From NCBI GenBank assembly GCA_017552965.1, contig JAFZNQ010000101.1:1899-65898 (forward strand): a DNA stretch of 64,000 bases, read 5' to 3'. The notes under the pieces are model-generated. The model had not been told where the DNA came from and searched no databases. It saw only the letters and a program-made list of their open reading frames with translations. This document shows, one piece after another, positions 10,723-26,727 of this stretch; position 1 is the first letter of the stretch; every line of letters starts with the position of its first letter. The position numbers were made by a program, and so were the translations under genes. The stretch is from Abditibacteriota bacterium (GTDB taxonomy: Bacteria; Armatimonadota; UBA5829).

Positions 10723-13350
10723 TCAGGACAGCAGCGCCAGTCTTTCCAGGAGCTTTGCCTTTTTGTCGGTGAGCTCGCTGACCAGAGCCTTTTGCTTGTC
10801 TATGACCTCCTGAGGGGCCTTGGCCAAAAAGCCCTGATTGGACAGCTTGCCCTGACTCCTGGCCAGGTCCTTCTCGATAGAGGCCAGCTCTTTGGTGATC
10901 TTGTCCTTTTCCTTGCCGCTGTCCCTGAGACCCTGAGGGTCTATATACACGTCCACACCCGGGAGATGGGTCCCGGCATAGGCTGCCTTTTCCTCCGGTG
11001 TGACGGTCTCCGGGGTATCCAGGCTCTCCAGCCTGCCCAGGAACATGATCTTGTCCTTCATGGAGCTCAGGTCCTTCCCGGTGACTATCACGGCTTTGGC
11101 GGGCTTGCCGCCGGGGATATCCAGCTGCAGCCGCATGCTCCGGATGGCGCCCACTATGGCCATCAGCAGCTCGGTCTCCTGCTCCGCTTCCTCAAATATG
11201 CGGCTGTCATCCGCCTGAGGATAGGGCTGCAGCATGATGCTGGCGCCCTCCTCGGAGCTCAGGTGCTGCCATATCTCCTCTGTGATAAAGGGCATCACGG
11301 GATGCAGCAGTCTCAGAGAGGCCTCCAGCACGTAGCCCAGAGTCCATCTGACCACGTCGCCGTCCTCTCCCCTGAGCCTGTCCTTGCTCAGCTCTATATA
11401 CCAGTCGCAGTAGTCGTTCCAGATGAAGTCGTGGATGGCCTTGGCAGCGTCGTCCATATCGTAGGTGGAGAGGGAGCTGTTGGCAGTCCGGGCAGTCTTC
11501 TGGAGCTTGGAGATGATCCACTTGTCCTCGGCGGACAGCCGGTCCTTCACCAGAGGCCAGTCCTCCGCCCTGAAGCCGTCTATGTTCATGAGCACGAAGC
11601 GGCTGGCGTTCCATATCTTGTTGCAGAAGCGGCTGACTATCTCCACTCTCTTGTCGGAAAATCTGATGTCCTGGGTCTTGCCGGCCTGGGAAATGAGCGA
11701 ATACCTCAGGGCGTCGGCGCCGTAAAGGTCTATCATCTCCAGAGGGTCCACTCCGGTGCCCAGGCTCTTGGACATACGCCTGCCCTTTTCGTCCTGGACC
11801 GTGGCGTAGATATACACGTCCCTGAAGGGCACGTCGCCCATATATTCCAGGGAGGAAAAGATCATGCGGGCCACCCACAGATTGATGATGTCCCTGGCGG
11901 TGATGAGCACGTCGGTGGGGAAGAAATACCGCAGCTCTTCGGTCATTTCCGGCCAGCCCAGCGTGGCAAAGGGCCAGAGAGCCGAGGAGAACCAGGTATC
12001 CAGCACGTCGGTCTCCTGCTCCACGGGGCCGCCGCAGTCGGGGCAGGCGTCCACGGGAGTCTTGCTGGCGATGAAGCGGCCGCAGGCCGAGCACTTGTAC
12101 ACGGGGATCCTGTGGCCCCACCAGAGCTGACGGCTGATGCACCAGTCTCTCACGTTTTCCAGCCATTCTATATAGCCCTTTTCATAGCGCTTGGGCCAGA
12201 AGGTGATCCGGCCGGACTTCACAGCCTCTATGGCGGGGGCGGCCAGCTCCTTCATCCTGCAGAACCACTGCTCGCTCAGCAGAGGCTCGATAGTGGTGCC
12301 GCAGCGCTGGCAGGTGCCCACCTGATGGGTGTAGTCCTCTATCTTGTCCATGAGCCCCAGGGCCTGCAGGTCGGCCACTATGGCCTCTCTGGCCTCGTAG
12401 CGGTCCATGCCCGCGTATTTGCCGCACACGTCGGTCATCCTGCCGTCGGGGGCTATGACGGTGATCTGGGGCAGATTGTGCCTGAGGCCCAGCTCAAAGT
12501 CGTTGGGGTCGTGGGCGGGGGTGATCTTCACGCAGCCCGTCCCGAATTCCATATCCACGTAGTCGTCCGCCACGATGGGTATCACCCGGTCCATCAGGGG
12601 CAGGATCAGATTCTTGCCCACCAGATCCTTGTAGCGCTCGTCATGGGAGTTGACTGCCACAGCCGTATCGCCCAGCATGGTCTCGGGGCGGGTGGTGGCT
12701 ATGGTCACGAAGCCGGAGCCGTCCTCCAGAGGATATCTGTAATGCCAGAAATGCCCGGCCTGCTCCTCGTATTCCACCTCCAGGTCGGATATGGCGGAGG
12801 CGCAGCGGGGGCACCAGTTGATGACTCTGGCTCCCTTGTAGATATAGCCCTTGTCGAACAGGCGGACAAAGGTCTCCAGCACCGCGTCTGCGTAGCCCTT
12901 GTCCATGGTGAAGCGCTCTCTCTCCCAGTCAAAGGAAAAGCCCAGCTTTTTGAACTGGCGTATGATCTGCCCGCCGTATTCGTTCTTCCACTCCCAGGTC
13001 TTCTCCAAAAAGGCCTCTCTGCCTATGGCCAGCCTGTCGATGCCTTCCCTGGCCAGCTTGTCCGCCACCTTTTTCTGGGTGGCTATGCCGGCGTGGTCCG
13101 TGCCGGGCAGACACAGGGTGTTGTAGCCCTGCATACGCTTCCAGCGGATCAGCACGTCGTGTATGGAATAGCACAGAGCGTGGCCTATGTGGAGACTGCC
13201 TGTCACGTTGGGAGGCGGGATGGTGATGGAATAACGGGGCCTCGAAGGATCGGGCTCGGCGTGAAAGTATCCGGCCTCGGTCCAGCGGGCGTACCACTTG
13301 TCCTCCACTCCCCGTGGGTCATAGGTCTTGGGCAAATTATCTGTCTGCAT
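10723..13350 (-). CDS. valS: Valine--tRNA ligase
   Basis: 875 aa class I aaRS with HIGH (LHIGH) and KMSKS motifs, an editing domain and a C-terminal coiled coil. Confidence 0.95.
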   Translation of the reverse strand: MQTDNLPKTYDPRGVEDKWYARWTEAGYFHAEPDPSRPRYSITIPPPNVTGSLHIGHALCYSIHDVLIRWKRMQGYNTLCLPGTDHAGIATQKKVADKLAREGIDRLAIGREAFLEKTWEWKNEYGGQIIRQFKKLGFSFDWERERFTMDKGYADAVLETFVRLFDKGYIYKGARVINWCPRCASAISDLEVEYEEQAGHFWHYRYPLEDGSGFVTIATTRPETMLGDTAVAVNSHDERYKDLVGKNLILPLMDRVIPIVADDYVDMEFGTGCVKITPAHDPNDFELGLRHNLPQITVIAPDGRMTDVCGKYAGMDRYEAREAIVADLQALGLMDKIEDYTHQVGTCQRCGTTIEPLLSEQWFCRMKELAAPAIEAVKSGRITFWPKRYEKGYIEWLENVRDWCISRQLWWGHRIPVYKCSACGRFIASKTPVDACPDCGGPVEQETDVLDTWFSSALWPFATLGWPEMTEELRYFFPTDVLITARDIINLWVARMIFSSLEYMGDVPFRDVYIYATVQDEKGRRMSKSLGTGVDPLEMIDLYGADALRYSLISQAGKTQDIRFSDKRVEIVSRFCNKIWNASRFVLMNIDGFRAEDWPLVKDRLSAEDKWIISKLQKTARTANSSLSTYDMDDAAKAIHDFIWNDYCDWYIELSKDRLRGEDGDVVRWTLGYVLEASLRLLHPVMPFITEEIWQHLSSEEGASIMLQPYPQADDSRIFEEAEQETELLMAIVGAIRSMRLQLDIPGGKPAKAVIVTGKDLSSMKDKIMFLGRLESLDTPETVTPEEKAAYAGTHLPGVDVYIDPQGLRDSGKEKDKITKELASIEKDLARSQGKLSNQGFLAKAPQEVIDKQKALVSELTDKKAKLLERLALLS

Positions 13351-14236
13351 TTATCACTCCGTTGGTATTTTGTTTTTTCATTATCAGGCACACCCATTCC
13401 TTCAGGGCGCGCTCCTCCGTCAGCTCAAAGCCTCTCTGTTCCAGGGCTTCCCGCACTTCCTGCGAGCGGGTATTGATGATACCCGAGGCCACCAGTATGC
13501 CTCCGGGCCGGGTGGCCGCCGCCAGCGAATCCGCCATATAGAGGATCACCTTGGCTATGATGTTGGCCAGGGTCAGGTCCGCCGGGACCGGGATATGGTC
13601 GGCGTTGAAGGCCCTCTGCAGGGAAGCCTCTACGCCCAGCCGGCGGAAATTGGCCTCCGCGGTCTCCACCGCCACCGAATCGCAGTCAAAGGCGTATATA
13701 TCTCCGGCCCCCAGCCGGTCTGCCGCTATGGACAGTATGCCTGAGCCGGTGCCCGCGTCTATCACCGTGTCCCCGGGCTTCAAGTAGTCCTCCAGGGCGC
13801 CCAGACACAGAGCCGTGGTGGGATGCTGTCCGGTGCCGAAGGCCATGCCGGGATCCAGCTCCAGCACTATCTCGCCGTCTGCGGGGTCGTAGTCCTCCCA
13901 GCCCGGCTTGATGACGAACCGGCCCAGCCTGAAGGGCTTGTAATACTTTTTCCAGCTGTCGGCCCAGTTTTCTTCCTCTATGAGCTCGGTGGTGAGCTCG
14001 GCGGAGGGCAGAGCGATGCCCAGCAGCTCAAAGGCCTTCACATGGGCTTCCAGCTTCCGCAGCTTGTCCGGATACTGGTCGTCGCAGCGTATGTAGGCGG
14101 TCAGGGTCACGGTGGCAAAGCCGTCGCCCTTGTTCACCTCCTCCAGCACGCCGCCAATGCCCGCCTCAGCGAACACCCGGGACAGGGCGTTCACGTATTC
14201 TCTGGAGGTATTGATGGAGACTCTGGCCCACTTCAT
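13337..14236 (-). CDS. prmA: Ribosomal protein L11 methyltransferase
   Basis: 299 aa with PrmA N-terminal domain and SAM-binding [10 protein letters not shown] motif. Coupled downstream of dnaJ (ATGA overlap). Confidence 0.9.
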
Positions 14237-15396
14237 TTCTTTTTGCGGCCCCCTCTCTTCTTGCCGAAGAGCTTGTCGGTGATGGTGTCCTTGTGAGGAG
14301 CGGGCTCAAGGGTCTCGCCCATGGCCTGCGAATAGGCCAGCAGGGCCTCCCGCTGCTCTGCGGAAAGGCTCCGGGGCACAGCGACTCCCACTCTCACGAA
14401 CATGGAGCCTCTTATGCCCGTTCTCAGCTGGGGCATGCCCTGCCCCTTCATCTCATACACCTGTCCGGGCTGGGTGCCCGGCTTGATCTCCAGCTCCGCG
14501 TCCTCGCCGTAGATGGTGGGCACGGGTATTTTGGTCCCCAGAGCAGCCGCCGCAAAGGACACCTCGGTCTCCATATAGAGGTCCTGGCCTCTGCGGACGA
14601 AATCCGGGTCCTCCTCCAGCCGCACCGCCACGTAGAGATCGCCGGCGGGGCCTCCGTTGAGGCCGTCGTCGCCGGCGCCGGCTATGCGCATGCGCTGATC
14701 GTCGTCAATGCCGGCGGGGATAGTCACTGTCTTGCGCTCGGTCCTGCGCACCCTCTTGTGTCCGTGACAGGTCTTGCATGGATCCGTGATCACGGCGCCC
14801 TCGCCGCCGCAGTTCTGACAGGTGGTCACCTGCACGGTGGTGCCGAAGATGCTGTTCACGGTCCGGCGCACCTGCCCGGTGCCGTGACACACGGGACATT
14901 CCGCCGGGGCAGCGCCGTTCTCGGAGCCGGTGCCCTTGCAGCTGTCGCAGGTGACGCTGCGGGGATACTCTATCTCTCTCTCGCAGCCCGTGGCTGCCTC
15001 CTGCAGAGAGATCCGCACCTGCAGCTCCTGATCGGCCCCCTGCAGGGGACCCGTGCGGCGGGACCTGCGGGCGCCTCCTCCGAAGATATCTCCAAAGCCA
15101 AAGTTGCCGAAGAGGTCGCCCAGATCGCCTTCAAAGGTAAAGCCGCCGGCTCCGCCGCCCTGAGGTCCGCCCTCCAGACCGGCTTCGCCGTAGCGATCGT
15201 AGATGCTGCGCTGTCTGTCGTCCGTCAGCACCTCGTGGGCCTTGTTTATCTGCTTGAATTTCTCCTCGGCGCCTTCCTCGTGATTGATGTCGGGATGGTA
15301 TTTGCGGGCCATCCTGCGGAAGGCCTTTTTGATATCGTCCTTGGTAGCGTCCCTGGACACGCCCAGGAGCTCGTAATAATCCTGATTGTCTGCCAT
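14233..15396 (-). CDS. dnaJ: Molecular chaperone DnaJ
   Basis: J-domain with HPD, a G/F-rich region, four CxxCxGxG zinc-finger repeats and a C-terminal domain. Confidence 0.95.
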
Positions 15397-15982: not shown

Positions 15983-17875
15983 TTATACTATTTTCGCCTC
16001 TATGCTGTCAATAGCCTCCTGGAGAGATTCCCATTTTTTCATGAGCTCCTCCAGCTTTTTTTGCTGCTCCGAATATTCCAGGCTCAGCTCCCGGGCGCTG
16101 CCGTCCCTGTACACCGACTCGTCCCCCATCAGGAGAGTGATCTCCTTCATGCGCTCCTCGCAGCTTTCTATCTCCGCTTCCAGAGCCTTCAGCTCCGCCT
16201 TCAGGGGCTTGGCCTGCTGCCGCAGGGCCCTGTTGTCGGGACCGGAGGCGGCTTTGGGCTTGACGGGAGGCGCGGGCTGCTCGGGCCGGACCGCCTTTTC
16301 CCTGTAGTAGGAATAAGGCCCCGGATATACCGTAAAGCGGCCGTCCCTGATCTCTGCGGTGACCCCGGCCGTCCTCTCCAGAAAATATCTGTCGTGGGAC
16401 ACGATGACCGCCGTCCCCTCGTATTCCCGGACGGCGTTTTCCAGTATCTCGCAGCTGGCGGTATCCAGATGGTTGGTGGGCTCGTCCAGCAGCAGCAGAT
16501 TGGGCTTTTCCGCCATGATGACAGCCAGGCTCAGCCGGCATTTTTCGCCGCCGGAGAGCTGCTCCACCGTCTTGAAGGCGTCGTCCCCGGAGAACAAAAA
16601 CCTGCCCAGCAGGGTCCTGGCCTCGGAGGAGGAGATGTCCGTGGAGAGCAGCAGCTCCTCCAGCACCGTGCGGCCCGGGTCCAGATGATCGAACTCCTGG
16701 GCAAAATAGGCCATCCTCACGTTGGCGCCGAAGGTCAGGGTGCCGCCGTCGGCGGGCACCTCTCCGTGAAGTATCTTGATAAAGGTGCTCTTGCCGGAGC
16801 CGTTGGGCCCCACTACGCCCACCTTGTCTCCCCTGTCCAGAGCAAAATCCACGTCCCGGAGCAGGGTCTTGCCGCCGTAGGACTTGGACAGGCCCCTGAC
16901 CCGCAGCACCTCCCTGCCGCTGAGCAGGTCGGGAGCGATGCGCACGCTCATGCGTCTGGGGTCGGATATCTCTTTCACGGGCCTGATGCGCTGCAGCTTC
17001 TTGACCAGACTGTCCCGGCCGGAGAAATTGCGGTGGGAAAAGAGGGTCTGGATGGCTTCCTCCAGCCTCTGGGCGGTCTTTTTCTGCTGCTCCCGTTCCT
17101 TCTCCAGGACCAGGAGCTCCGCCCTTCTCTTGTCGGAATAGGCCGAATAATTGCCCTTGTATTCCGACACACAGCCCCCCTCCAGAGCCAGCACCGAATC
17201 GCAGATCTGGTCCAGAAAATATCTGTCGTGGCTGATGATGAGGGCCGCGCCCTGATACTGGCCCCTGAGGTATTCCACAAATCTCTCGCAGGCGTCTATA
17301 TCCAGATGGTTGGTGGGCTCGTCCAGCAGCAGCAGGTCGTGCTCTCCCAGCAGGAGCCGGGCCAGATGGGCTCTGGTCTTCTGGCCGCCGCTGAGGTGCC
17401 GGGGCAGCATATCCGTCTCCTGAGGCAGAAAGCCCAGCATCAGAAGCACGATGCGGGCCTGCTCCAGACGGCCAAAGCCCCCCAGCGCTTCGAACTCATG
17501 GGAGGCGTCTCCCAGCTCGGCGGCGGCTGAGTTGGAGTCGGGCTCCGCTTCCAGCCTCTCCCGGCAGGAGCGCAGGCGGGCGTAGCTCTCCGCCAGCTCC
17601 GGCGAAGCGCAGGCCACGGAGCCCAGCAGCTCAAAATCGCCGTCAAAGCCGGAGTCCTGAGGCAGATAGCCCACGGAGACTCCCGTCTCCTTTTGGACCC
17701 GGCCGCTGTCCGGGGAGAGCTCGCCGGCAAGTATCTTCATGATGGTGGACTTGCCGGTGCCGTTGTCCCCTATGAGGGCCTTGCGGCTGCTTTTTTCCAT
17801 GAGGAAGGACACGCCCTCAAACAGGTCCCTCACACCGTAGCTTTTGGAGATGTTCTGGCAGGTGATGAGAGCCAC
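15983..17875 (-). CDS. ABC-F family ATPase (tandem ABC domains, no TMD; translation/antibiotic-resistance-type factor)
   Basis: Two Walker A motifs (GDNGTGKST, GPNGSGKST), two LSGG signatures and a C-terminal coiled coil. The true start is the GTG at 17875 (VALITCQNISKSYG). The 227 aa N-terminal extension in the track ORF is Arg/His-rich junk overlapping the upstream gene. Confidence 0.85.
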   Translation of the reverse strand: MALITCQNISKSYGVRDLFEGVSFLMEKSSRKALIGDNGTGKSTIMKILAGELSPDSGRVQKETGVSVGYLPQDSGFDGDFELLGSVACASPELAESYARLRSCRERLEAEPDSNSAAAELGDASHEFEALGGFGRLEQARIVLLMLGFLPQETDMLPRHLSGGQKTRAHLARLLLGEHDLLLLDEPTNHLDIDACERFVEYLRGQYQGAALIISHDRYFLDQICDSVLALEGGCVSEYKGNYSAYSDKRRAELLVLEKEREQQKKTAQRLEEAIQTLFSHRNFSGRDSLVKKLQRIRPVKEISDPRRMSVRIAPDLLSGREVLRVRGLSKSYGGKTLLRDVDFALDRGDKVGVVGPNGSGKSTFIKILHGEVPADGGTLTFGANVRMAYFAQEFDHLDPGRTVLEELLLSTDISSSEARTLLGRFLFSGDDAFKTVEQLSGGEKCRLSLAVIMAEKPNLLLLDEPTNHLDTASCEILENAVREYEGTAVIVSHDRYFLERTAGVTAEIRDGRFTVYPGPYSYYREKAVRPEQPAPPVKPKAASGPDNRALRQQAKPLKAELKALEAEIESCEERMKEITLLMGDESVYRDGSARELSLEYSEQQKKLEELMKKWESLQEAIDSIEAKIV

Positions 17876-19779
17876 TACTCCAGTCCTTTCCGGATGACGC
17901 AGAGCATGGTGATATCGTCGGACTGCTCCGCTTCGCCTGCGTATTCCTTCAGGTCGGCGTAAAAGGCGTCGCACACAGCCCTGGCCGACTCTCTGCCGTT
18001 TTTCCTGAGGGAGTATCTGATGCGCTCGTGTCCGAACTGCAGGTTCTCCGTGTTCATGCACTCGTCCACGCCGTCGGTGAACATGTAGAGCATGTCGCCG
18101 GGATGGAAGGGCACGGTCTTCTCGGTGTATTTGCCGTTTTCGAAGACTCCCGCCAGGCGTCCCTTGAGCCTCTCCAGCTGGGTGATACCGCCGTCGGAAG
18201 TGCACAGATAGGGGGCGGGATGTCCTGCCAGGGAGTAGGTGAAGGTCTCCTCGGCTTCGTCTATGACGCCGAAGAGCAGAGTCACGAACATATCGGTGGA
18301 GTTGGACCGGGACACCTCCCGGTTCACCACTTCCAGAGCCTCGGAGGGCGACATGCCTTCCTTCCAGAGCACCTTGGCGGTGGTGATGACCATGCTCATG
18401 AAGAGAGCGGCGCTGGGTCCCTTGCCGGACACGTCGCCTATGAGCACTGCCACCCGGGTGGGAGATATGCGAAACACGTCGTAGAGGTCGCCGCCCACCT
18501 GACGGGCGGGCCGGACGAAGGCGTAGATGTCCAGGATGTCCGAGCACACGCTGTCAAAGTCCTTGGGCAGCATGCTGTCCTGTATGCTCCAGGCTATCTT
18601 CAGCTCGCTCTCGGCCTTTTCCCTGTCGGAGTCGGCCTTGCGGATGATGGCTATCTGCTCCTTGATATCGTCCTTCATCTTGTTGAACTCGTATATCAGG
18701 GTGCTGATCTCGTCCTCATGCTCGGGCTCCGGCAGCTGATAGTCCAGATTGCCCTTGGAATACTCTCTGACAGCCAGCTCCAGGTCCTTCACGGGATAGA
18801 GTATCTGTCTGGCTATCCTCACCACCACTATGCCCAGTATGATGATGCCCATGAATCCCACCAGTATGATGGTCCTGTTCATGAGCTCCAGATTGAAAAA
18901 GAGATAGCGGGTGGGGACCACGTAGCCCAGGGACCAGCCCGTGGACACGATGGGAGCGTAGGCCATCTCGCAGCGCTTGCCCGTGACCGTGGAATAGCCA
19001 AAGGAGCCAAAGCCGGACACGCCGGCAAGCATATTCTTGCCGATGCTCCGCAGGGCAGGCATATTTTCGCCCTCCGCCACGGAAAAGATGGTCTCGTTCA
19101 TCACGTATTTGGACTCGGGGTGATATATGACGGTGCCGGTGCCGGTGATCAGGAAATGGTAGTTGTGCACCTTGTCCTGATAGCTCTCCATCAGCTCCTG
19201 TATCCACTGTATAGTGACGTCGGCGGTGAGGACTCCCAGGAACTCCCGGTCCTCCCCTTCCCCTCTGTAAACCGGGGCCGAATAGGTGACCATCAGCAGC
19301 TCGGTGCCGCCTTCGTCATAATAGGGCTCGATCCAGCAGGACCGGCCCGTATCCCGGGCCAGGGTGTACCAGTCCGCGCTGCTGTAGTCATAGGTGGGAG
19401 GCGAAAAGACTATGGAGCCGTCCCCGTCCCTGTAGCAATAGACGTTCCTCAGCTGCACGTCCGTGTTGTACACGAAGGCAGAGCCGTTGATGGAGCTGTT
19501 GGAGCGGACTATGCTGGGCAGCAGGGTCCTGAGGCTTTCCTCGCTCATATCCGAGGTCTTGGCGGCAAAATCCACCACCGAAGCGATGCTGCTCAGGGTC
19601 GAATCGATCTTGTTGGCGTTGCTGGACACCATATACACGGTGCGTTCCACGGTCTCCTTGTAGCCTATGATCTTACCCACTCTGTAGTTGATGACGCTGA
19701 GCAGCACCACAATGAGAGAGCAGCCGAGGATGACGTAGAGCGACAGCCTGGTGGTTATTTTGAGCTTGCGCATTATCAT
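17875..19779 (-). CDS. Sensor protein: periplasmic Cache-like domain - TM - HAMP - PP2C/SpoIIE serine phosphatase
   Basis: 634 aa with N-terminal TM, an extracytoplasmic dCache-like region and a second TM. HAMP-like region (...AVREYSKGNLDYQLPEP...), and a C-terminal PP2C fold (GDVSGKGPSAALFMS...FTDGV). Confidence 0.8.
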   Translation of the reverse strand: MIMRKLKITTRLSLYVILGCSLIVVLLSVINYRVGKIIGYKETVERTVYMVSSNANKIDSTLSSIASVVDFAAKTSDMSEESLRTLLPSIVRSNSSINGSAFVYNTDVQLRNVYCYRDGDGSIVFSPPTYDYSSADWYTLARDTGRSCWIEPYYDEGGTELLMVTYSAPVYRGEGEDREFLGVLTADVTIQWIQELMESYQDKVHNYHFLITGTGTVIYHPESKYVMNETIFSVAEGENMPALRSIGKNMLAGVSGFGSFGYSTVTGKRCEMAYAPIVSTGWSLGYVVPTRYLFFNLELMNRTIILVGFMGIIILGIVVVRIARQILYPVKDLELAVREYSKGNLDYQLPEPEHEDEISTLIYEFNKMKDDIKEQIAIIRKADSDREKAESELKIAWSIQDSMLPKDFDSVCSDILDIYAFVRPARQVGGDLYDVFRISPTRVAVLIGDVSGKGPSAALFMSMVITTAKVLWKEGMSPSEALEVVNREVSRSNSTDMFVTLLFGVIDEAEETFTYSLAGHPAPYLCTSDGGITQLERLKGRLAGVFENGKYTEKTVPFHPGDMLYMFTDGVDECMNTENLQFGHERIRYSLRKNGRESARAVCDAFYADLKEYAGEAEQSDDITMLCVIRKGLE

Positions 19780-21441: not shown

Positions 21442-22268
21442 CCCTTGATACCGGTGGTGACGACTCCCTTCACAAAGAACTTCTGGGCCACGAAGAACAG
21501 GATCACCACCGGCAGCAGGGTGACGGTGGAGGCCGCCATCAGCGACACTATGTCCACTCCCTGCACGTCGGAAAAGGTGGCCAGTCCCAGCGCCAGAGTC
21601 CTGTTTTCCACGGAATTGAGATATATGAGGGGAGTCATAAAGTCGTTCCAGTAGCCCACGAAGGCAAACACCATGACCGACACTGCCACGGGCTTGGAGA
21701 GAGGCATGAGTATCTTCAGATACACCTGCCAGGTGCTGCAGCCGTCCAGTCTGGCCGCATCCTCCAGCTCCGCCGGGATGGTCAGGAAAAACTGCCTGAA
21801 CAGGAATATGTACAGGGCGTTGCCGAAAAAGGAGGGCAGTATCAGGGGCCACAGGGTGTCATACATGCCCAGGCTCTTGAAAATGACGAACTGGGGCACG
21901 CAGGTCACCATGGCCGGCAGCATCAGGGTGGAGAGCACCAGCAGGAAGACGCCCTGCTTGCCCGGAGCCTTCAGCCGCGCAAAGACGTAGGCCGCCATGG
22001 AGGAGCTGATCAGTGTGCCCGCTATGCCCAGTCCCGTCACCAGACAGGTGTTGAGAAAATACCTGCCGAAGGGCATCAGGGTCAGGGCGTAGCGGTAGTT
22101 GGCTAGGTCTATCTTTTTGGGAACGAAGAGAAATCTGGCCTTGCCTATCTCCTCCACGTTGGACACGGAGGCAGCCAGCATCCACAGCAGGGGAGCCAGA
22201 AACAATGCCGCCAGGGCTATGATGACCAGATACCTGAGTATCTCTGATATGATATTGGTTCTTTTCAT
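21438..22268 (-). CDS. Carbohydrate ABC transporter permease (MalG-like)
   Basis: 277 aa, 6 TM, EAA-type loop, sugar-permease C-terminal signature. Start MKRTNII at 22268, ATGA-coupled to the upstream fusion gene. Confidence 0.85.
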   Translation of the reverse strand: MKRTNIISEILRYLVIIALAALFLAPLLWMLAASVSNVEEIGKARFLFVPKKIDLANYRYALTLMPFGRYFLNTCLVTGLGIAGTLISSSMAAYVFARLKAPGKQGVFLLVLSTLMLPAMVTCVPQFVIFKSLGMYDTLWPLILPSFFGNALYIFLFRQFFLTIPAELEDAARLDGCSTWQVYLKILMPLSKPVAVSVMVFAFVGYWNDFMTPLIYLNSVENRTLALGLATFSDVQGVDIVSLMAASTVTLLPVVILFFVAQKFFVKGVVTTGIKG

Positions 22269-24556
22269 GACTCGCTCTCGTAATATACCCACTTGTTGGC
22301 CAGCTTGAAGTTGATAAGGGTGATAAGCATGACCACCAGAAACAGCATCCAGGCCATGGCCGAAGCCTTGCCCACGTTGAGGTAGCTGAAGGCCTGATTG
22401 TAGAGATACAGGCCGTAGAACAGAGACGCGTCCTCGGGGCCTCCGGAGCCGTTGTTCAGGATGAAGGCCTGGGTAAACATCTGCAGGCTGAATATGATGC
22501 CCGTGATCAGCTGATAGAATATGGCGGGAGTGATCAGCGGCAGGGTGATGCCGAAGAGCTTTCTGGCTCCTCCGGCCCCGTCCAGATCCGCCGCCTCATA
22601 CAGCTGCGCCGGCACCCCCTGCAGGGCCGCCAGATAAATGATCATGGAGGAGCCCACGGACCACACGCTCATGATGACAAAGGCGGGTATGCACAGCTTG
22701 GGCACCAGCAGCCACCCGTCGGCGTTGGACATCATGGACAGCCACACCAGCCTGCCCCGCTCTATCCAGGGGACTATATGCAGGCCCAAAAAGTTGTTGA
22801 GGAGCCCCGAAGGGGCAAATATATTGATCCACAGCACCGAGGTGGCGACGCCGCTGATGACCGAGGGCAGATAATACAGGGTCCGGGCGGCCTCCACGAA
22901 GCGGTTCGTCTTGTTGAGCAGCACGCTGACCAGCAGTCCGAACACCACGGACAGGGGCACCGCCCACAGGGTATAGACCGTGGTCACCCATATGGATCTG
23001 ACAAACTTTTCGTCCCGGAAAAGCTCGGCAAAGTTTCTGAAGCCTATGGCCCAGGCCGTGTTGATCACGTCCCATTTGGAGAAGGAAAACACCAGTGACG
23101 CCAGCACGGAGCCCAGAGTGAGCACCACAAAGCCTATGATCCAGGGGAGTATCATGAGATAGAATTCTCCGGTCTCCCGGCGTTCCCGGGGGTGGCCCTT
23201 GGTCTCTTTCAGGGTCCAGACCGTCCACAGGACGGCAAAAAGGGCGAGGGCTCCGAAGAGCAGTATCCCCAGCAGCCGCCAATTGACGGGCCGGAAGCCG
23301 CTCATGTCTTCGTCCGCCTGAGCTATGATGGCGTTGACCCGCTTTTCGGCCTCGTCGAGAGTCTCCTTTTCCGTCTTTTTGCCCTTGAGATACAGCTCTA
23401 TCCGGGAGGCCATCTCCGCGGAGGCCTCGGCCCAGCCCGGGACTATGGGGATGGTCTTGCCGTAGGGGAGCTGGTCTATGAAGCCCTTGAAGATGGGATC
23501 CTGGCAAAAGGTGTCGTCGGTGGCGGCGGAGCGCCGGGCCGGTATCCTGCCCCCTGCGCTGCACACCTTGATCATCTGCTCCCGGGAAGCGGCAAATTTG
23601 ATGAATTCCCAGGCGGCTCTCTTGTGCCGGGAGCCCCGGGGTATCACCAGGCTGTTGCCCACTATCTCGCTGGCGGGATATTTGCCGTAGGGCACCGTGG
23701 CTATGCCATAATCCAGATCGGGATAATTGGCTCTGAATATAGACGACTTGTAGGGATTGTCCACGAACATGGCCACGGCCCCGTTGCCAAAGGGGTCGTT
23801 CACGTTGCCGTGAAACTGGGAGTTGAAGTTCTGCAGGGTGTTGACATCTCCCGTCTCCTCCCTGATGAAGGAGGACATGAACCTGAGGGCCTCCGCCCCC
23901 TCCCGGGTGTTGAAGACGGCCTTTTGGGTCTCCGGGTCCACCAGCTCTCCCCCCAGCTGCCAGAGATACATGGCGAAGTTGTTGGGGTTGTACAAAAAGG
24001 CCGAAAAGCCCAGCCGGACGGGCTTGCCGTCCTTGTCGTATTTGGTGAGCTTGCGGGCGTATTCCCTGAGCTCCTGCCAGGTCTTCGGAGGCCTCTCCGG
24101 GTCCAGACCCGCCTCCCTGAACAGAGCCTTGTTGTAATAGAGAGCGTTGGGGCTCAGCACCCAGGGCAGTCCGTAGAGGACCCCCTTGTAGGTGTTTTGC
24201 TCCAGTCCGGCGGGATAAAAGTCCTCCAGACCAAAGCCGTCCTCCCTGACCAGGCTGTCCAGCTCCTCCAGGGCGCCGCGGCTCATCATGCCGCCGCCCA
24301 GGTGGGCGTAAAAACGCACCACGTCCGGTGGCACCTTGCCGGCGATGGACAGGGTCAGCTTCCTTTCCACGTAGGCCTGGGGCACCAGAACGCCGTTGAC
24401 AGCTATGTCCGGATGCTGCTTCTCGAATGCCTTTATCATCTGCTCATAGGCGATCCTTTCGTCGGGGGAGGCTCCGTACCAGAAGGTGATGGTCTCCTTT
24501 GCCATGACGGAGGACGCCGCCAGTATCAGCAGGATGCACAGGATGATTTTTTTCAA
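22265..24556 (-). CDS. Fused solute-binding protein / MalF-like permease of a carbohydrate ABC importer
   Basis: 763 aa. Residues 1-430 are a signal peptide plus family-1 extracellular solute-binding domain. Residues 440-763 are a 6-TM MalF-type permease (LQMFTQAFILNNGSGGPEDASLFYGLYLY). No NBD gene in the operon. Confidence 0.8.
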   Translation of the reverse strand: MKKIILCILLILAASSVMAKETITFWYGASPDERIAYEQMIKAFEKQHPDIAVNGVLVPQAYVERKLTLSIAGKVPPDVVRFYAHLGGGMMSRGALEELDSLVREDGFGLEDFYPAGLEQNTYKGVLYGLPWVLSPNALYYNKALFREAGLDPERPPKTWQELREYARKLTKYDKDGKPVRLGFSAFLYNPNNFAMYLWQLGGELVDPETQKAVFNTREGAEALRFMSSFIREETGDVNTLQNFNSQFHGNVNDPFGNGAVAMFVDNPYKSSIFRANYPDLDYGIATVPYGKYPASEIVGNSLVIPRGSRHKRAAWEFIKFAASREQMIKVCSAGGRIPARRSAATDDTFCQDPIFKGFIDQLPYGKTIPIVPGWAEASAEMASRIELYLKGKKTEKETLDEAEKRVNAIIAQADEDMSGFRPVNWRLLGILLFGALALFAVLWTVWTLKETKGHPRERRETGEFYLMILPWIIGFVVLTLGSVLASLVFSFSKWDVINTAWAIGFRNFAELFRDEKFVRSIWVTTVYTLWAVPLSVVFGLLVSVLLNKTNRFVEAARTLYYLPSVISGVATSVLWINIFAPSGLLNNFLGLHIVPWIERGRLVWLSMMSNADGWLLVPKLCIPAFVIMSVWSVGSSMIIYLAALQGVPAQLYEAADLDGAGGARKLFGITLPLITPAIFYQLITGIIFSLQMFTQAFILNNGSGGPEDASLFYGLYLYNQAFSYLNVGKASAMAWMLFLVVMLITLINFKLANKWVYYESES

Positions 24557-24798
24557 CGCTCGACTTCCTCAGGGTTTTTCTAATTAATTTATACCATAAA
24601 AGGGCCAATTATTCAAGCCGCGCCCCTGCCCCGCAAAAAGGAACACGCGAGAGACCCGGGCAGTCTATATTATTGAGAAAGGCGCCTTTTTTCCCGATTC
24701 AGATTATTTTCGGCCTCTTTCGCTTGCTTTACTTCTTTGATTTAGTATATAATAGTATTGCAGGTATTTAATCAGGTACCTTTACTGCAAAGAGAAAT

Positions 24799-25875
24799 AT
24801 GAAAGACTATTATCAGATACTTCACATATCCAGACTGGCTTCGAAGGATGAGATCAAGGCCGCGTATTACGCGCTGGCCAGGAAATATCATCCCGACATC
24901 AACAAGAGCCCTGACGCCGCAGATATGTTCAGGGAGATCAACGAAGCCTACTCTGTGCTGAAAAGACCCGAGAAAAAAGGCAAGTACGACTATGAGCTGA
25001 AGGCGGAGGAAGAGGATTCCCGCCGCAGCAACGACAACAACTACAGCTTTTCGGGCAAGAACCGCAGATACGAGGGCGTGTCTCTGGCCACCCTGGTCAG
25101 ATGCCTCAACAAAGGCCGCATAGACGAGTCCACCATCATTTTCCACAAGGGCAAGCCTTACAGGATCACCGGCTTTGACGGAGCAAAGGTGACCTTTTCC
25201 CCGGTGGATATGGGCAACAACAAGAACAAATACTATGCGGACCCCACCGGCGCCACCGTTCAGGAGGAGCCGGAAGGCAACCTGCGGGACGCCATGCACT
25301 TCTACTGGTACGACCTCATCCACTCGGCCAGAGGCAGGGTGATGCTCTTCCTCCTGGCCACCATCATCATCATAGGCACCATACAGTTCTTCCAGAGGGC
25401 CCTGGGGCCCAAGGAGCCCACTCCCGCCATGGTCACGGATCCCATGCTGGATGTGCCGGAGTACGGCAATCAGGCCTCCACCCCGGTGGTGGGCTTGCCT
25501 CCCAACGGGTCCATACGGTGGTACGTGGACACAGCCGGCAACATCCCGGTCACGGTGTCGGTCCCCAGAGGCAAGGACTATTATTACGTCATCATCAAGA
25601 ACATGGACTCGGGAGCCAAGGTGCTCTCCGTGTTCCTCTACAAGGGCAAGACAGCCAGGATAAGCATGACCGCCGGCAACTACGGCGTATACTATACCAA
25701 TTTCACCTCCGGCCAGTGGGCGGGTCCCGACACTGTGGGTCAGTCAACACCCTGCGCCAGGTGCAACATATATCTGGCAGTCAGCCGGGACTCCAGGCCT
25801 TCGGTGAGCCTGAAGCCGGTCTCGGACAACAACCCCGCCATCACTCAGATCAGCTACGAAGAATTCATACGTTAG
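24799..25875 (+). CDS. Membrane J-domain protein (N-terminal DnaJ domain, one TM, extracytoplasmic beta-rich C-terminal domain), paralog A
   Basis: N-terminus [36 protein letters not shown]... (HPD). [14 protein letters not shown] motif, then TM ([18 protein letters not shown]), then a 150 aa C-terminal domain of unknown function. Putative promoter with -10 TATAAT at 24748-24753. Confidence 0.7.
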
Positions 25876-25949
25876 AACAGCCACACGGCTGTTCTTTCTG
25901 TTTGCGCCCGCCCGGCTCTGCCGGAGGACGCCCTGCGCTATATCTGTAA

Positions 25950-26693
25950 ATGAAAAACTATTATGAGATACTCGGGGTCCCCCGCAGCGCGGACCAGAGC
26001 GAGATAAAAGCGGCCTACAGAAGCCTGGCCAGAAAATACCATCCGGACATCAACAAGAGTCCGGAGGCCGAGGATATGTTCAAGACCATCAACGAGGCCT
26101 ACTCCGTGCTGGGCGACCCGGCCAAGCGCAGGCTCTACGACATGGGCGGCGGCGTGGGTCAGAACGGCGGGACCTTCAGGAGGCTCTACAGCGTCCAGGG
26201 CTATCACAGGTTTTATCACAATCTCACCGAGCGGGAGATCCTGTATCTGCTGGAGGCAGGCGAGCTGGCTCCCGACGCCCTGCTGCTCTCGGACGGCAAC
26301 CCCTACAGGATAGTCCCCACGGCAGAGGGCCTTGCCATAGCCCCCGGCGCTCCCAAGCCCTCCCACACGGGCTTTGGCGTCCCCGAATACACCATCAATA
26401 TGGGAGACGAGCCCGGCCGCAGAAGGCGGGAGCCGAAGAAAAAGGACAACGGCTGCGGCTGCTTTGGCTGCGCGGGCTGCGTCCAGTATCTCTTATTCCT
26501 CATGCTCATACTCACGGTGCTGAACTTCCTCACCCACGGCTGCTCCTTTGAGACCGAGCCCCTGCCCGGGGAAGAAAAGGAAAAGGACAGGGACAGGGAC
26601 AAGGAGGACAAGACTCCCGCCAATTTTACCCTGGCGCCGGACTTCGCAGAGCCCCTGTCCGGAGACGTGGGCCCCTTTTTCCGGGACGCATAA
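25950..26693 (+). CDS. Membrane J-domain protein, paralog B (J-domain, GNPYRIV motif, Cys-rich TM segment)
   Basis: [36 protein letters not shown]... Shares the J-domain and the G(K/N)PYRI motif with paralog A. Followed by CGCFGCAGC plus a TM and a charged tail. Confidence 0.7.
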
Positions 26694-26727
26694 AAAATGC
26701 CGGAAGGTCATACCTTCCGGCTTTTTA
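26692..26727. terminator. Bidirectional intrinsic terminator between J-domain gene B and rubrerythrin
   Basis: AAAAAA-GCCGGAAGGTcatACCTTCCGGC-TTTTT. Confidence 0.5.

Follow-up and report, generated by a model that had tools for sequence, protein, structure and literature searches.

A conserved tandem pair of predicted membrane J-proteins in Abditibacteriota combines a lineage-restricted cytosolic domain with a widespread unnamed outer domain

Introduction

What might a bacterium do with two neighboring genes that each encode a J domain followed by a membrane helix? We have addressed this question for two genes, here called A and B, that lie in tandem on the plus strand of a 64,000-nucleotide stretch of DNA from a rumen Abditibacteriota bacterium (GenBank assembly GCA_017552965.1, contig JAFZNQ010000101.1, positions 1,899 to 65,898). 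The whole stretch is hereafter called the window. J-proteins of class C decide where and on what Hsp70 acts, and few of the membrane-bound representatives from bacteria have been studied, these being DjlA and DjlB/DjlC. A sequence-only reading of the window had proposed that A and B are paralogous membrane proteins with N-terminal J domains, that their layout is the reverse of that of DjlA, and that they may constitute a new family.

The first of these proposals is borne out, as evident by the open reading frames (ORFs), the Pfam and BLASTP matches, and the conservation of the two genes as a pair. Regarding function, we lean toward the interpretation that these are bitopic class C J-proteins conserved as a pair, with the N-terminus inside and the C-terminus outside, and that they would concentrate DnaK activity at the inner membrane face. 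The evidence that carries this interpretation, and the alternatives to it, are presented below.

Results

A and B are paralogous J-proteins of class C

Both proteins begin with a J domain (Table 1), which the Pfam DnaJ model matches over residues 3-64 in A and B alike, and whose HPD motif is invariant in the A family and in the B family. Counted on the BLASTP alignment, 43 of the 64 J-domain positions (67%) are identical between the two proteins. The stretch INEAYSVL and one other are identical throughout, but the earlier description of these domains as 'nearly identical' is somewhat generous for their overall similarity. The BLASTP alignment of A with B (44% identity, E 7e-30) covers residues 1-124, and therefore the paralogy does not stop at the end of the J domain but reaches into a second one.

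In each protein Pfam recognizes the J domain alone, with no G/F region, zinc finger or DnaJ_C. By these sequence criteria A and B are J-proteins of class C (type III), which carry an HPD J domain without the client-binding domains of classes A and B. The NCBIfam models for DnaJ, CbpA and TopJ likewise match the J region only and score far under their full-length cut-offs. The J domains of A and B are 60-70% identical to many J domains of the DnaJ/CbpA type. Identity of this domain across the A family is 56-94%, and in the B family it is the most conserved part of the protein (66-100%).

The pair recurs in five rare lineages of the Abditibacteriota type

Full-length relatives of A are scarce. 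A collection of 5.8 billion proteins holds only five (P0001-P0005), with identities of 87, 63, 64 and 48% plus one identical copy, and those with a named source come from metagenome-assembled genomes (MAGs) of Abditibacteriota. When the A-family alignment was used for scanning, one genome per GTDB species gave one match only, in Abditibacteriota RGIG10284 of the yak rumen. Metagenomes gave only a contig with 100% identity to the window across the match, and IMG/VR gave no relative of A. Outside its J domain, B has only two relatives in the large protein collection, and the homologs of B are P0275, P0006 and those encoded at L001:9135-9845 and L008:943-1653.

The sequence-only reading had called for a search for the pair in other genomes. 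With the window included, five lineages, all of them rare MAGs or metagenome contigs of the Abditibacteriota type, retain the pair, with identities for A as low as 48%. At locus L001 (63% identity for A), A is followed by a gene for a 236-residue J-protein, and the flanking genes are those of the window. The same arrangement occurs at L002-L004 (87%) and at L008 (64%). At L010 (48%), which is AT-rich and the most distant of these loci, a second J-domain gene (MKDYYKILGISPDADH...) begins 78 nucleotides past the stop codon of A, and the contig then ends. As judged from these searches, both the pair and the middle domain that A and B share are limited to a handful of Abditibacteriota contigs of the rumen type.

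Each protein is predicted to cross the membrane once

A and B each have one strongly hydrophobic helix, in line with the single membrane crossing proposed earlier. The hydrophobicity of a single 19-residue segment peaks at a Kyte-Doolittle value of 2.15 at residues 173-191 of B, and the corresponding value for A is given in Table 1. Basic residues lie N-terminal of the helix (SARGR in A) and are most clearly seen in B. Because a J domain acts only where Hsp70 and ATP are present, we infer that both proteins have their N-terminus in the cytoplasm and their C-terminus outside. Among the segments of A around the membrane, identity across the family is 25-90% for the transmembrane (TM) helix, 10-57% for a variable linker at residues 137-157 and 27-67% for a Pro-rich linker at residues 200-232.

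In B, the middle domain is followed by a linker rich in Pro and in Arg/Lys, and then by a cysteine cluster that runs straight into the helix. The CGCFGCAGC cluster pointed out by the sequence-only reading proves to be a family feature, as evident by the invariant pattern CGCxxCxGC (C169, C171, C174 and C177). A further cysteine, C198, which lies just past the helix, is also invariant in the B family. The charged C-terminal part that had been described for B exists as an acidic tail, but it is short and poorly conserved (34-69% identity), finds no match in Pfam, and does not amount to a real extracytoplasmic domain. Since only this tail of ~50 residues lies past the helix, B is effectively tail-anchored.

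The shared middle domain is probably GYF-like

The G(K/N)PYRI motif that had been noticed in both proteins is indeed common to A and B, but it is not an isolated motif. It belongs to a shared domain of ~55 residues, in which conservation across the A family is at its highest (71-98% identity). No sequence relatives of this domain outside the A and B families were found with the A-family profile among 1.84 billion cluster representatives or in a profile search of PDB sequences.

By eye, the domain shows two short strands, a helix and the pattern G-x-I-x-x-x-T-I-I-F-x-x-G-x-P-Y, as in bacterial GYF_2 domains. A model made with AlphaFold2 (AF2) has the order beta-beta-alpha-beta-beta-beta, with a predicted local distance difference test (pLDDT) score of ~80 in the core. 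When this model was compared with PDB structures by Foldseek, 8 of the 14 best, sub-significant matches were GYF chains (GltJ, GIGYF1, GIGYF2, three Smy2 entries and Arabidopsis GYF), with TIC56 ranking lower. We also used hhalign to align the A/B middle domain with a small GYF_2-type alignment, which consisted of GltJ from 7z3c, TIC56 and a hand-written GYF_2 consensus that itself matched 7z3c at E 5e-12. This comparison gave a probability of 69.8% (P 4.1e-5), with 25 columns aligned in the register expected.

In bacteria, most GYF domains sit at a cytosolic N-terminus ahead of a membrane module; they do not have the G/Y/F residues, and the partners that they bind are rich in proline (PMC11135422). 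The placement of the A/B middle domain fits this description, and we consider a divergent bacterial GYF-like adaptor to be a probable but unproven assignment.

The outer domain of A belongs to a large unnamed family

The sequence-only reading had described a beta-rich C-terminal domain with a CARC motif in A. An AF2 model built from a 50-sequence alignment is confidently all-beta (pLDDT 89.7, predicted template modeling score 0.80). Identity of this C-domain across the A family is 50-87%, and C319 and C322 of the CARC motif are invariant. Searches of Pfam, NCBIfam and PDB sequences found no match for the C-domain, and neither these nor fold searches of PDB linked the C-terminal part of A or B to a characterized family. 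FctB pilin, the VHL beta domain and transthyretin were rejected as homologs of the C-domain, being generic sandwiches with Foldseek TM scores of 0.4 or less against PDB.

Profile searches nevertheless indicate that this domain is not an orphan, but a member of a large, unannotated family of extracytoplasmic beta-sandwich domains with at least 308 cluster representatives. An exhaustive search of the 1.84 billion cluster representatives with a profile that covers the A family outside its J domain gave 308 matches at E<=1e-3, of which 13 were at E<=1e-10 and the best at 1.9e-14. With the exception of P0002, the representative of the A family itself, all of them match the TM helix and C-domain, and none matches the middle domain. 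A hidden Markov model of the C-domain by itself gave domain E-values down to 8e-20. The aligned domains have in common the motifs P-x-NG, YYY, G-x-Y-x-x-YY, W-Y-G and G-N-L. The A family diverges from the other members, having WxGP in place of WYG, two inserted residues and the CxxC pair.

Among predicted viral structures (BFVD), the best matches of the C-domain model are a 423-residue Myoviridae protein (E 5e-8, TM score 0.63) and a 326-residue Podoviridae 'DnaJ domain protein' (E 9e-6). A typical C-domain has one match among 50,697 phage records, and A's own C-domain has no match among phage genomes. Searches of Pfam, NCBIfam, PHROGs and PADLOC with 50-100 relatives of the C-domain, and with what A and B contain outside their J domains, recognized only J domains and unrelated N-terminal modules.

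The outer domain is joined repeatedly to the Hsp70 system

Domain architectures were counted on the 149 matches listed, of the 308. The C-domain ends 12 or fewer residues from the C-terminus in 122 of the 149, usually after a short linker that follows the TM helix. The N-terminal parts are absent or short in 35 proteins, zinc ribbons in 16, multi-pass membrane regions in 18 and other cytosolic regions in 43, with TPR, ankyrin, serpin, Big_2, SLH and DUF805 modules seen occasionally. An N-terminal J domain followed by a single TM helix is present in 27 of the 149 (~18%), and HPD is retained in 22 of these 27. One cluster with this J, TM and C-domain layout includes Acinetobacter apis WP_088822564.1, which is annotated only as 'DnaJ domain-containing protein'.

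A second kind of link to chaperones appears in P0184 (L016 1-1314), an Hsp70 reading frame that is open to the contig end. It encodes the end of the nucleotide-binding domain, the interdomain linker, a shortened substrate-binding domain, a TM helix and the C-domain, and so would connect the membrane module with the Hsp70 system by gene fusion. From these architectures, the module of TM helix and C-domain appears promiscuous, yet joined repeatedly to the Hsp70 system. Two unusual members may be mentioned separately: P0184 has ~110 extra residues past the C-domain, and P0123 (485 residues) carries two tandem C-domains past the TM helix, with HHD replacing HPD in its J domain.

Six distant genes of the J, TM and C-domain type were read on their contigs. 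Two are in prophages, where P0250 (L012 2849-3865) and P0179 (L017 6001-6786) lie between a gene for an ImmA-like M78 peptidase or a cI/LexA-like repressor and the integrase gene. Such a slot is the usual site of genes for lysogenic conversion or superinfection exclusion. A third gene, P0202 (L013), adjoins helix-turn-helix (HTH) and RhuM-like genes, and the remaining three (L005, L018 and L019) are chromosomal. No partner gene is common to the neighborhoods of the window, L001 and these six distant relatives, and the pair in the window has no mobile-element features. At L019 (4638-8625), P0216 is encoded immediately downstream of a gene for a PrsA/SurA-like rotamase and is convergent with a second J-domain gene, of 223 residues, after which comes a DUF5685 gene. 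Here, too, two J-proteins are neighbors.

Candidate regulatory elements, partly conserved, accompany the two genes

Upstream of A is a candidate promoter of the sigma-70 type (Table 1), in agreement with the proposal that the genes have a promoter of their own. It escaped a consensus promoter scan because its -35 element agrees with the consensus at only three of six positions. When four lineages are aligned (the window, L002, L001 and L010, with A identities of 87, 63 and 48% for the latter three), both hexamers TTGCTT and TATAAT and their 18-nucleotide spacing are invariant, which is good comparative evidence that the candidate is a promoter. The bidirectional terminator that had been proposed downstream of B is also found, with a stem between an A run and a T run that scored on both strands.

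The earlier notion of a small, separate transcription unit needs amendment. In five of five lineages the stop codon of A is directly succeeded by a GC-rich, terminator-like hairpin and then a tract rich in U, which the terminator scan placed at 25874-25895 in the window, and A and B therefore do not form a simple co-transcribed unit. Given this arrangement, expression of B probably depends on read-through or, at L010, on a promoter of its own.

Table 1. Genes A and B, their domains and the associated regulatory elements, in coordinates of the window.
Feature	Positions	Strand	Description
Gene A	24799..25875	+	358 residues; J, GYF-like, juxtamembrane helix, TM helix, Pro-rich linker, beta-sandwich C-domain
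A J domain	24799..24990	+	Residues 1-64, HPD at 31-33; Pfam PF00226 E 1.1e-22
A middle cytosolic domain	25039..25206	+	Residues 81-136; counterpart in B; fold probably GYF-like and divergent
A juxtamembrane aromatic segment	25270..25335	+	Residues 158-179; 59-91% family identity; predicted helical, low confidence
A TM helix	25336..25395	+	~Residues 180-199; Kyte-Doolittle 19-mer maximum 2.18 at 181-199
A C-domain, predicted extracytoplasmic beta-sandwich	25495..25872	+	Residues 233-358; CARC (C319, C322) specific to A family
Gene B	25950..26693	+	247 residues; J, GYF-like, basic/Pro-rich linker, Cys cluster, TM helix, short acidic tail
B J domain	25950..26141	+	Residues 1-64, HPD; Pfam PF00226 E 2.8e-27
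B middle domain	26175..26342	+	Residues 76-131; paralogous to A 81-136 (BLASTP, joint alignments)
B CGCFGCAGC cluster and TM helix	26454..26537	+	Cluster residues 169-177, helix ~178-196
B acidic C-terminal tail	26538..26690	+	~50 residues; probably extracytoplasmic; 34-69% identity, indels
Candidate sigma-70-type promoter of A	24724..24753	+	-35 TTGCTT 24724-24729, 18-nucleotide spacer, -10 TATAAT 24748-24753
Terminator-like/attenuator hairpin between A and B	25874..25905	+	9-pair stem, then U-rich TTCTGTTTG
Bidirectional intrinsic terminator, common to B and convergent rubrerythrin gene	26699..26721	.	10-pair stem, 7 GC pairs

The surrounding genes

Every gene verified by Pfam between 9057 and 33599 lies on the minus strand except A and B, which agrees with the earlier observation that these are the only plus-strand genes in ~25 kb. 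The neighbors on one side encode a fused solute-binding-protein/permease component of an ATP-binding cassette (ABC) transporter, a PP-loop ATPase, an NMT1-like protein and a dCache-HAMP-SpoIIE phosphatase. On the other side are genes for rubrerythrin, a GH3 glycosidase, a SASA esterase and an AMP-binding enzyme. At 14233-15396 (-), ~9 kb from the pair, is a gene for a canonical class A DnaJ (387 residues, with J domain, CXXCXGXG zinc finger and DnaJ_C). It is followed by prmA, the two genes together occupying 13337-15396 (-), with no dnaK or grpE adjoining. The J domain of this DnaJ is 48% identical to that of A and 53% identical to that of B.

Two neighboring loci have features of their own. 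The 763-residue ORF at 22265-24556 (-), which is divergent from A, fuses an SBP_bac_1/8 solute-binding protein to a BPD_transp_1 ABC permease, an unusual arrangement for a sugar-type ABC importer that is kept at equal length at L001 (5462-7753). In addition, an ABC-F-type ATPase ORF at 15983-18547 (-; 854 residues, GTG start) overlaps the dCache-HAMP-SpoIIE phosphatase gene at 17875-19779 (-) by ~670 nucleotides. The true start of the former is probably further downstream, and the product called at L001 has 561 residues.

Comparison with known J-proteins and GYF proteins

The closest precedent for the layout of A and B is found in Escherichia coli DjlB and DjlC, both tail-anchored membrane proteins with an N-terminal J domain (PMC8215388). 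Like A and B, these have a cytoplasmic J domain and a single C-terminal membrane anchor, and are encoded by tandem paralogs at one locus. B, being effectively tail-anchored, comes closest to them. DjlB and DjlC carry HPE-type J domains and are paired with HscC (PMC8215388, PMC13254874). In contrast, A and B have HPD, are 358 and 247 rather than ~480 residues long, and have no hscC gene nearby, as judged by a tblastn search of the window. Furthermore, A differs in having a folded outer domain, according to the AF2 model. BLASTP aligns A and B with E. coli DjlC over only 51 residues of the J domain (27-33% identity), and this comparison rules out membership in the DjlB/DjlC family.

DjlA is also a membrane-tethered J-protein and recruits DnaK to the inner membrane, but its parts are in the opposite order, with an N-terminal TM helix, a central TerB-like domain and a C-terminal J domain. 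The description of A and B as the reverse of DjlA is thus correct with regard to their N-terminal J domains, although not unprecedented, because the topology of DjlB and DjlC makes this layout an already known one (PMC8215388). Identity with DjlA itself was rejected, since NCBIfam PRK09430 gives 14.6 and 24.4 bits, in the J region only, relative to a cut-off of 162. TopJ of the Mycoplasma terminal organelle was rejected on similar grounds (77-97 bits in the J region only; cut-offs of 300 for NF037946 and 512 for TIGR03835).

Bacterial GYF_2 membrane proteins such as Myxococcus GltJ, with a small N-terminal cytosolic adaptor, one TM helix and an outer domain, resemble the layout predicted here. 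The A/B middle domain, like most bacterial GYF domains, does not carry the G/Y/F signature (PMC11135422), and it aligns to GYF domains of the GltJ/TIC56 type in the expected register. A and B differ from GltJ-type proteins in that Pfam GYF_2 does not match them, a J domain replaces the usual zinc ribbon, and the outer domain is not TonB-C. Many members of the unnamed TM and beta-sandwich family (Acinetobacter apis WP_088822564.1, BFVD A0A8S5M1J1) have the same succession of J domain, one TM helix and C-domain as A. The A family adds the GYF-like and juxtamembrane segments, and most C-domain relatives are single genes rather than a pair. Finally, B can be compared by analogy only with cysteine-string protein (DNAJC5), in which a cysteine cluster at the membrane anchor likewise comes after an N-terminal J domain. 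However, DNAJC5 is eukaryotic and anchored by palmitoylated cysteines, whereas B has a true hydrophobic helix and only four to five cysteines.

Discussion

According to the interpretation we favor, A and B would each place an HPD J domain and a small GYF-like interaction domain at the cytoplasmic face of the membrane, where the J domain would stimulate ATP hydrolysis by the general Hsp70, DnaK. DnaK would thereby be loaded onto whatever the adaptor domain or the membrane surroundings present, such that chaperone activity becomes concentrated at the membrane. The middle domain may select the partner or client, and the outer beta-sandwich domain of A would probably fix its envelope location or its association there. 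B would be the tail-anchored version, with its cysteine cluster at the membrane edge, and the hairpin between the genes would probably lower the abundance of B relative to A through partial termination. The general DnaK is the expected partner because the J domains are of the DnaJ/CbpA type and not of the HPE type found in DjlB and DjlC. Likewise, the presence of a class A DnaJ 9 kb away suggests that A and B are accessory J-proteins.

Several observations weigh against this interpretation. All of its support is computational, and the predicted topology of A and B is drawn from hydropathy and charge only. The AF2 model of the middle domain was built from seven sequences only, its Foldseek matches are not significant (E 0.56-3, TM scores 0.3-0.47), and when residues 66-179 of A and 66-247 of B are searched, Pfam yields no family at E<=10, GYF_2 included. 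The C-domain has no conserved polar residues that point to catalysis and no solved relative. Because it is also joined to zinc ribbon, ankyrin, TPR, serpin, Big_2 and SLH modules, it is not specific to Hsp70. A tblastn search with HscC found no Hsp70 gene in the window, and the neighbors of A and B are functionally unrelated to them, so that the context names no client.

The function of these proteins could instead reside outside the cell membrane. If the outer C-domain were the business end, serving in envelope binding or as a scaffold, the J domain might be needed mainly for the biogenesis or turnover of the protein that carries it. Insertion of tail-anchored DjlC into the membrane is dependent on DnaK (Peschke 2018, as cited in PMC8215388), and 122 of the 149 listed C-domain proteins have no J domain. 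We nevertheless judge this explanation unlikely. B has no C-domain, yet its J domain is highly conserved (66-100%). The middle domain of A is more conserved than its C-domain, and the fusion to a J domain arose or persisted in many divergent lineages.

The strict co-occurrence of two paralogs in five lineages might point to a hetero-oligomer. A and B could associate through their middle domains or TM helices in the manner of Pam18/Pam16 and position DnaK at a translocon or insertase for protein insertion or export. A middle domain common to both proteins would suit such an arrangement, as would the inter-gene hairpin, which suggests a set stoichiometry, and the Pro-rich linker of B (e.g. PPGPTRGYPPPPPPK in L008), which could be a ligand of a GYF-like domain. 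One member of the C-domain family also adjoins a PrsA-like foldase gene (L019). However, no Sec, YidC or Tat gene is near A and B, and most relatives with the J, TM and C-domain layout are single genes, which leaves this explanation quite unlikely.

That the pair couples DnaK to a periplasmic signal, as the sequence-only reading suggested, is a conjecture. A bolder proposal, which we regard as decidedly unlikely, is that the TM helix and beta-sandwich form a dedicated and widespread membrane tether and sensor for the Hsp70 system, attached repeatedly to J domains and at least once to an Hsp70. In Abditibacteriota this module would have developed into a device of two proteins. A, as the sensor, would assemble with the tail-anchored, cysteine-bearing B via contacts between the GYF-like domain and the Pro-rich linker, and recruitment of DnaK would follow the state of the envelope. 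If true, this would constitute a transmembrane signaling route into the cytosolic chaperone.

Some distant relatives raise the prospect of a mobile-element heritage, wherein membrane J-proteins would serve phage exclusion or lysogenic conversion by diverting the host DnaK or by sensing surface events. P0250 and P0179 occupy their positions between repressor/ImmA and integrase genes of prophages, P0202 is beside HTH and RhuM-like genes, and structural relatives occur in viral contigs, including the Podoviridae 'DnaJ domain protein'. We find this very improbable for the pair in the window, which is in stable chromosomal synteny with housekeeping and carbohydrate genes and has no phage genes around it. 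Outside the J region there is no PADLOC or PHROG match, A is without relatives in IMG/VR, and a typical C-domain has only the single match among phage records.

An envelope or division scaffold like ARC6/ZipN, whose J domain would organize a partner in the cytoskeleton or in division while the outer domain makes contact with one in the envelope, is scarcely credible, since A and B share the overall layout of ARC6/Ftn2/ZipN (N-terminal J-type domain, one TM helix, C-terminal outer domain) but Pfam shows DnaJ only and no ARC6-type C-terminal domain, no division genes are near A and B, and their HPD is intact whereas the J-like domain of ARC6 is degenerate.

Returning to our favored interpretation of membrane-localized recruitment of DnaK, the locus is best filed as a variant within the class C membrane J-proteins that joins one lineage-restricted cytosolic domain to one widespread unnamed outer domain. 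The suggestion of a new family holds for the middle domain and the pair, which are restricted to Abditibacteriota contigs, but not for the C-domain of A, which belongs to a large unannotated family with a recurrent J, TM and C-domain layout. Class C comprises thousands of architectures (PMC10410713), and a new one is thus unsurprising in itself. More interesting is the recurrent fusion of J domains or Hsp70 to one and the same membrane module.

The locus points to a recurrent unnamed architecture, consisting of an N-terminal J domain, one TM helix and an outward beta-sandwich, that extends from Abditibacteriota to Acinetobacter and to the lysogeny modules of prophages. Both the C-terminal beta-sandwich and the A/B middle domain merit family definitions, and the members from Acinetobacter and prophages are experimentally tractable. 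If the outer domain controls or localizes the recruitment of DnaK, this architecture would provide a simple path from the state of the envelope to the cytosolic chaperone network.

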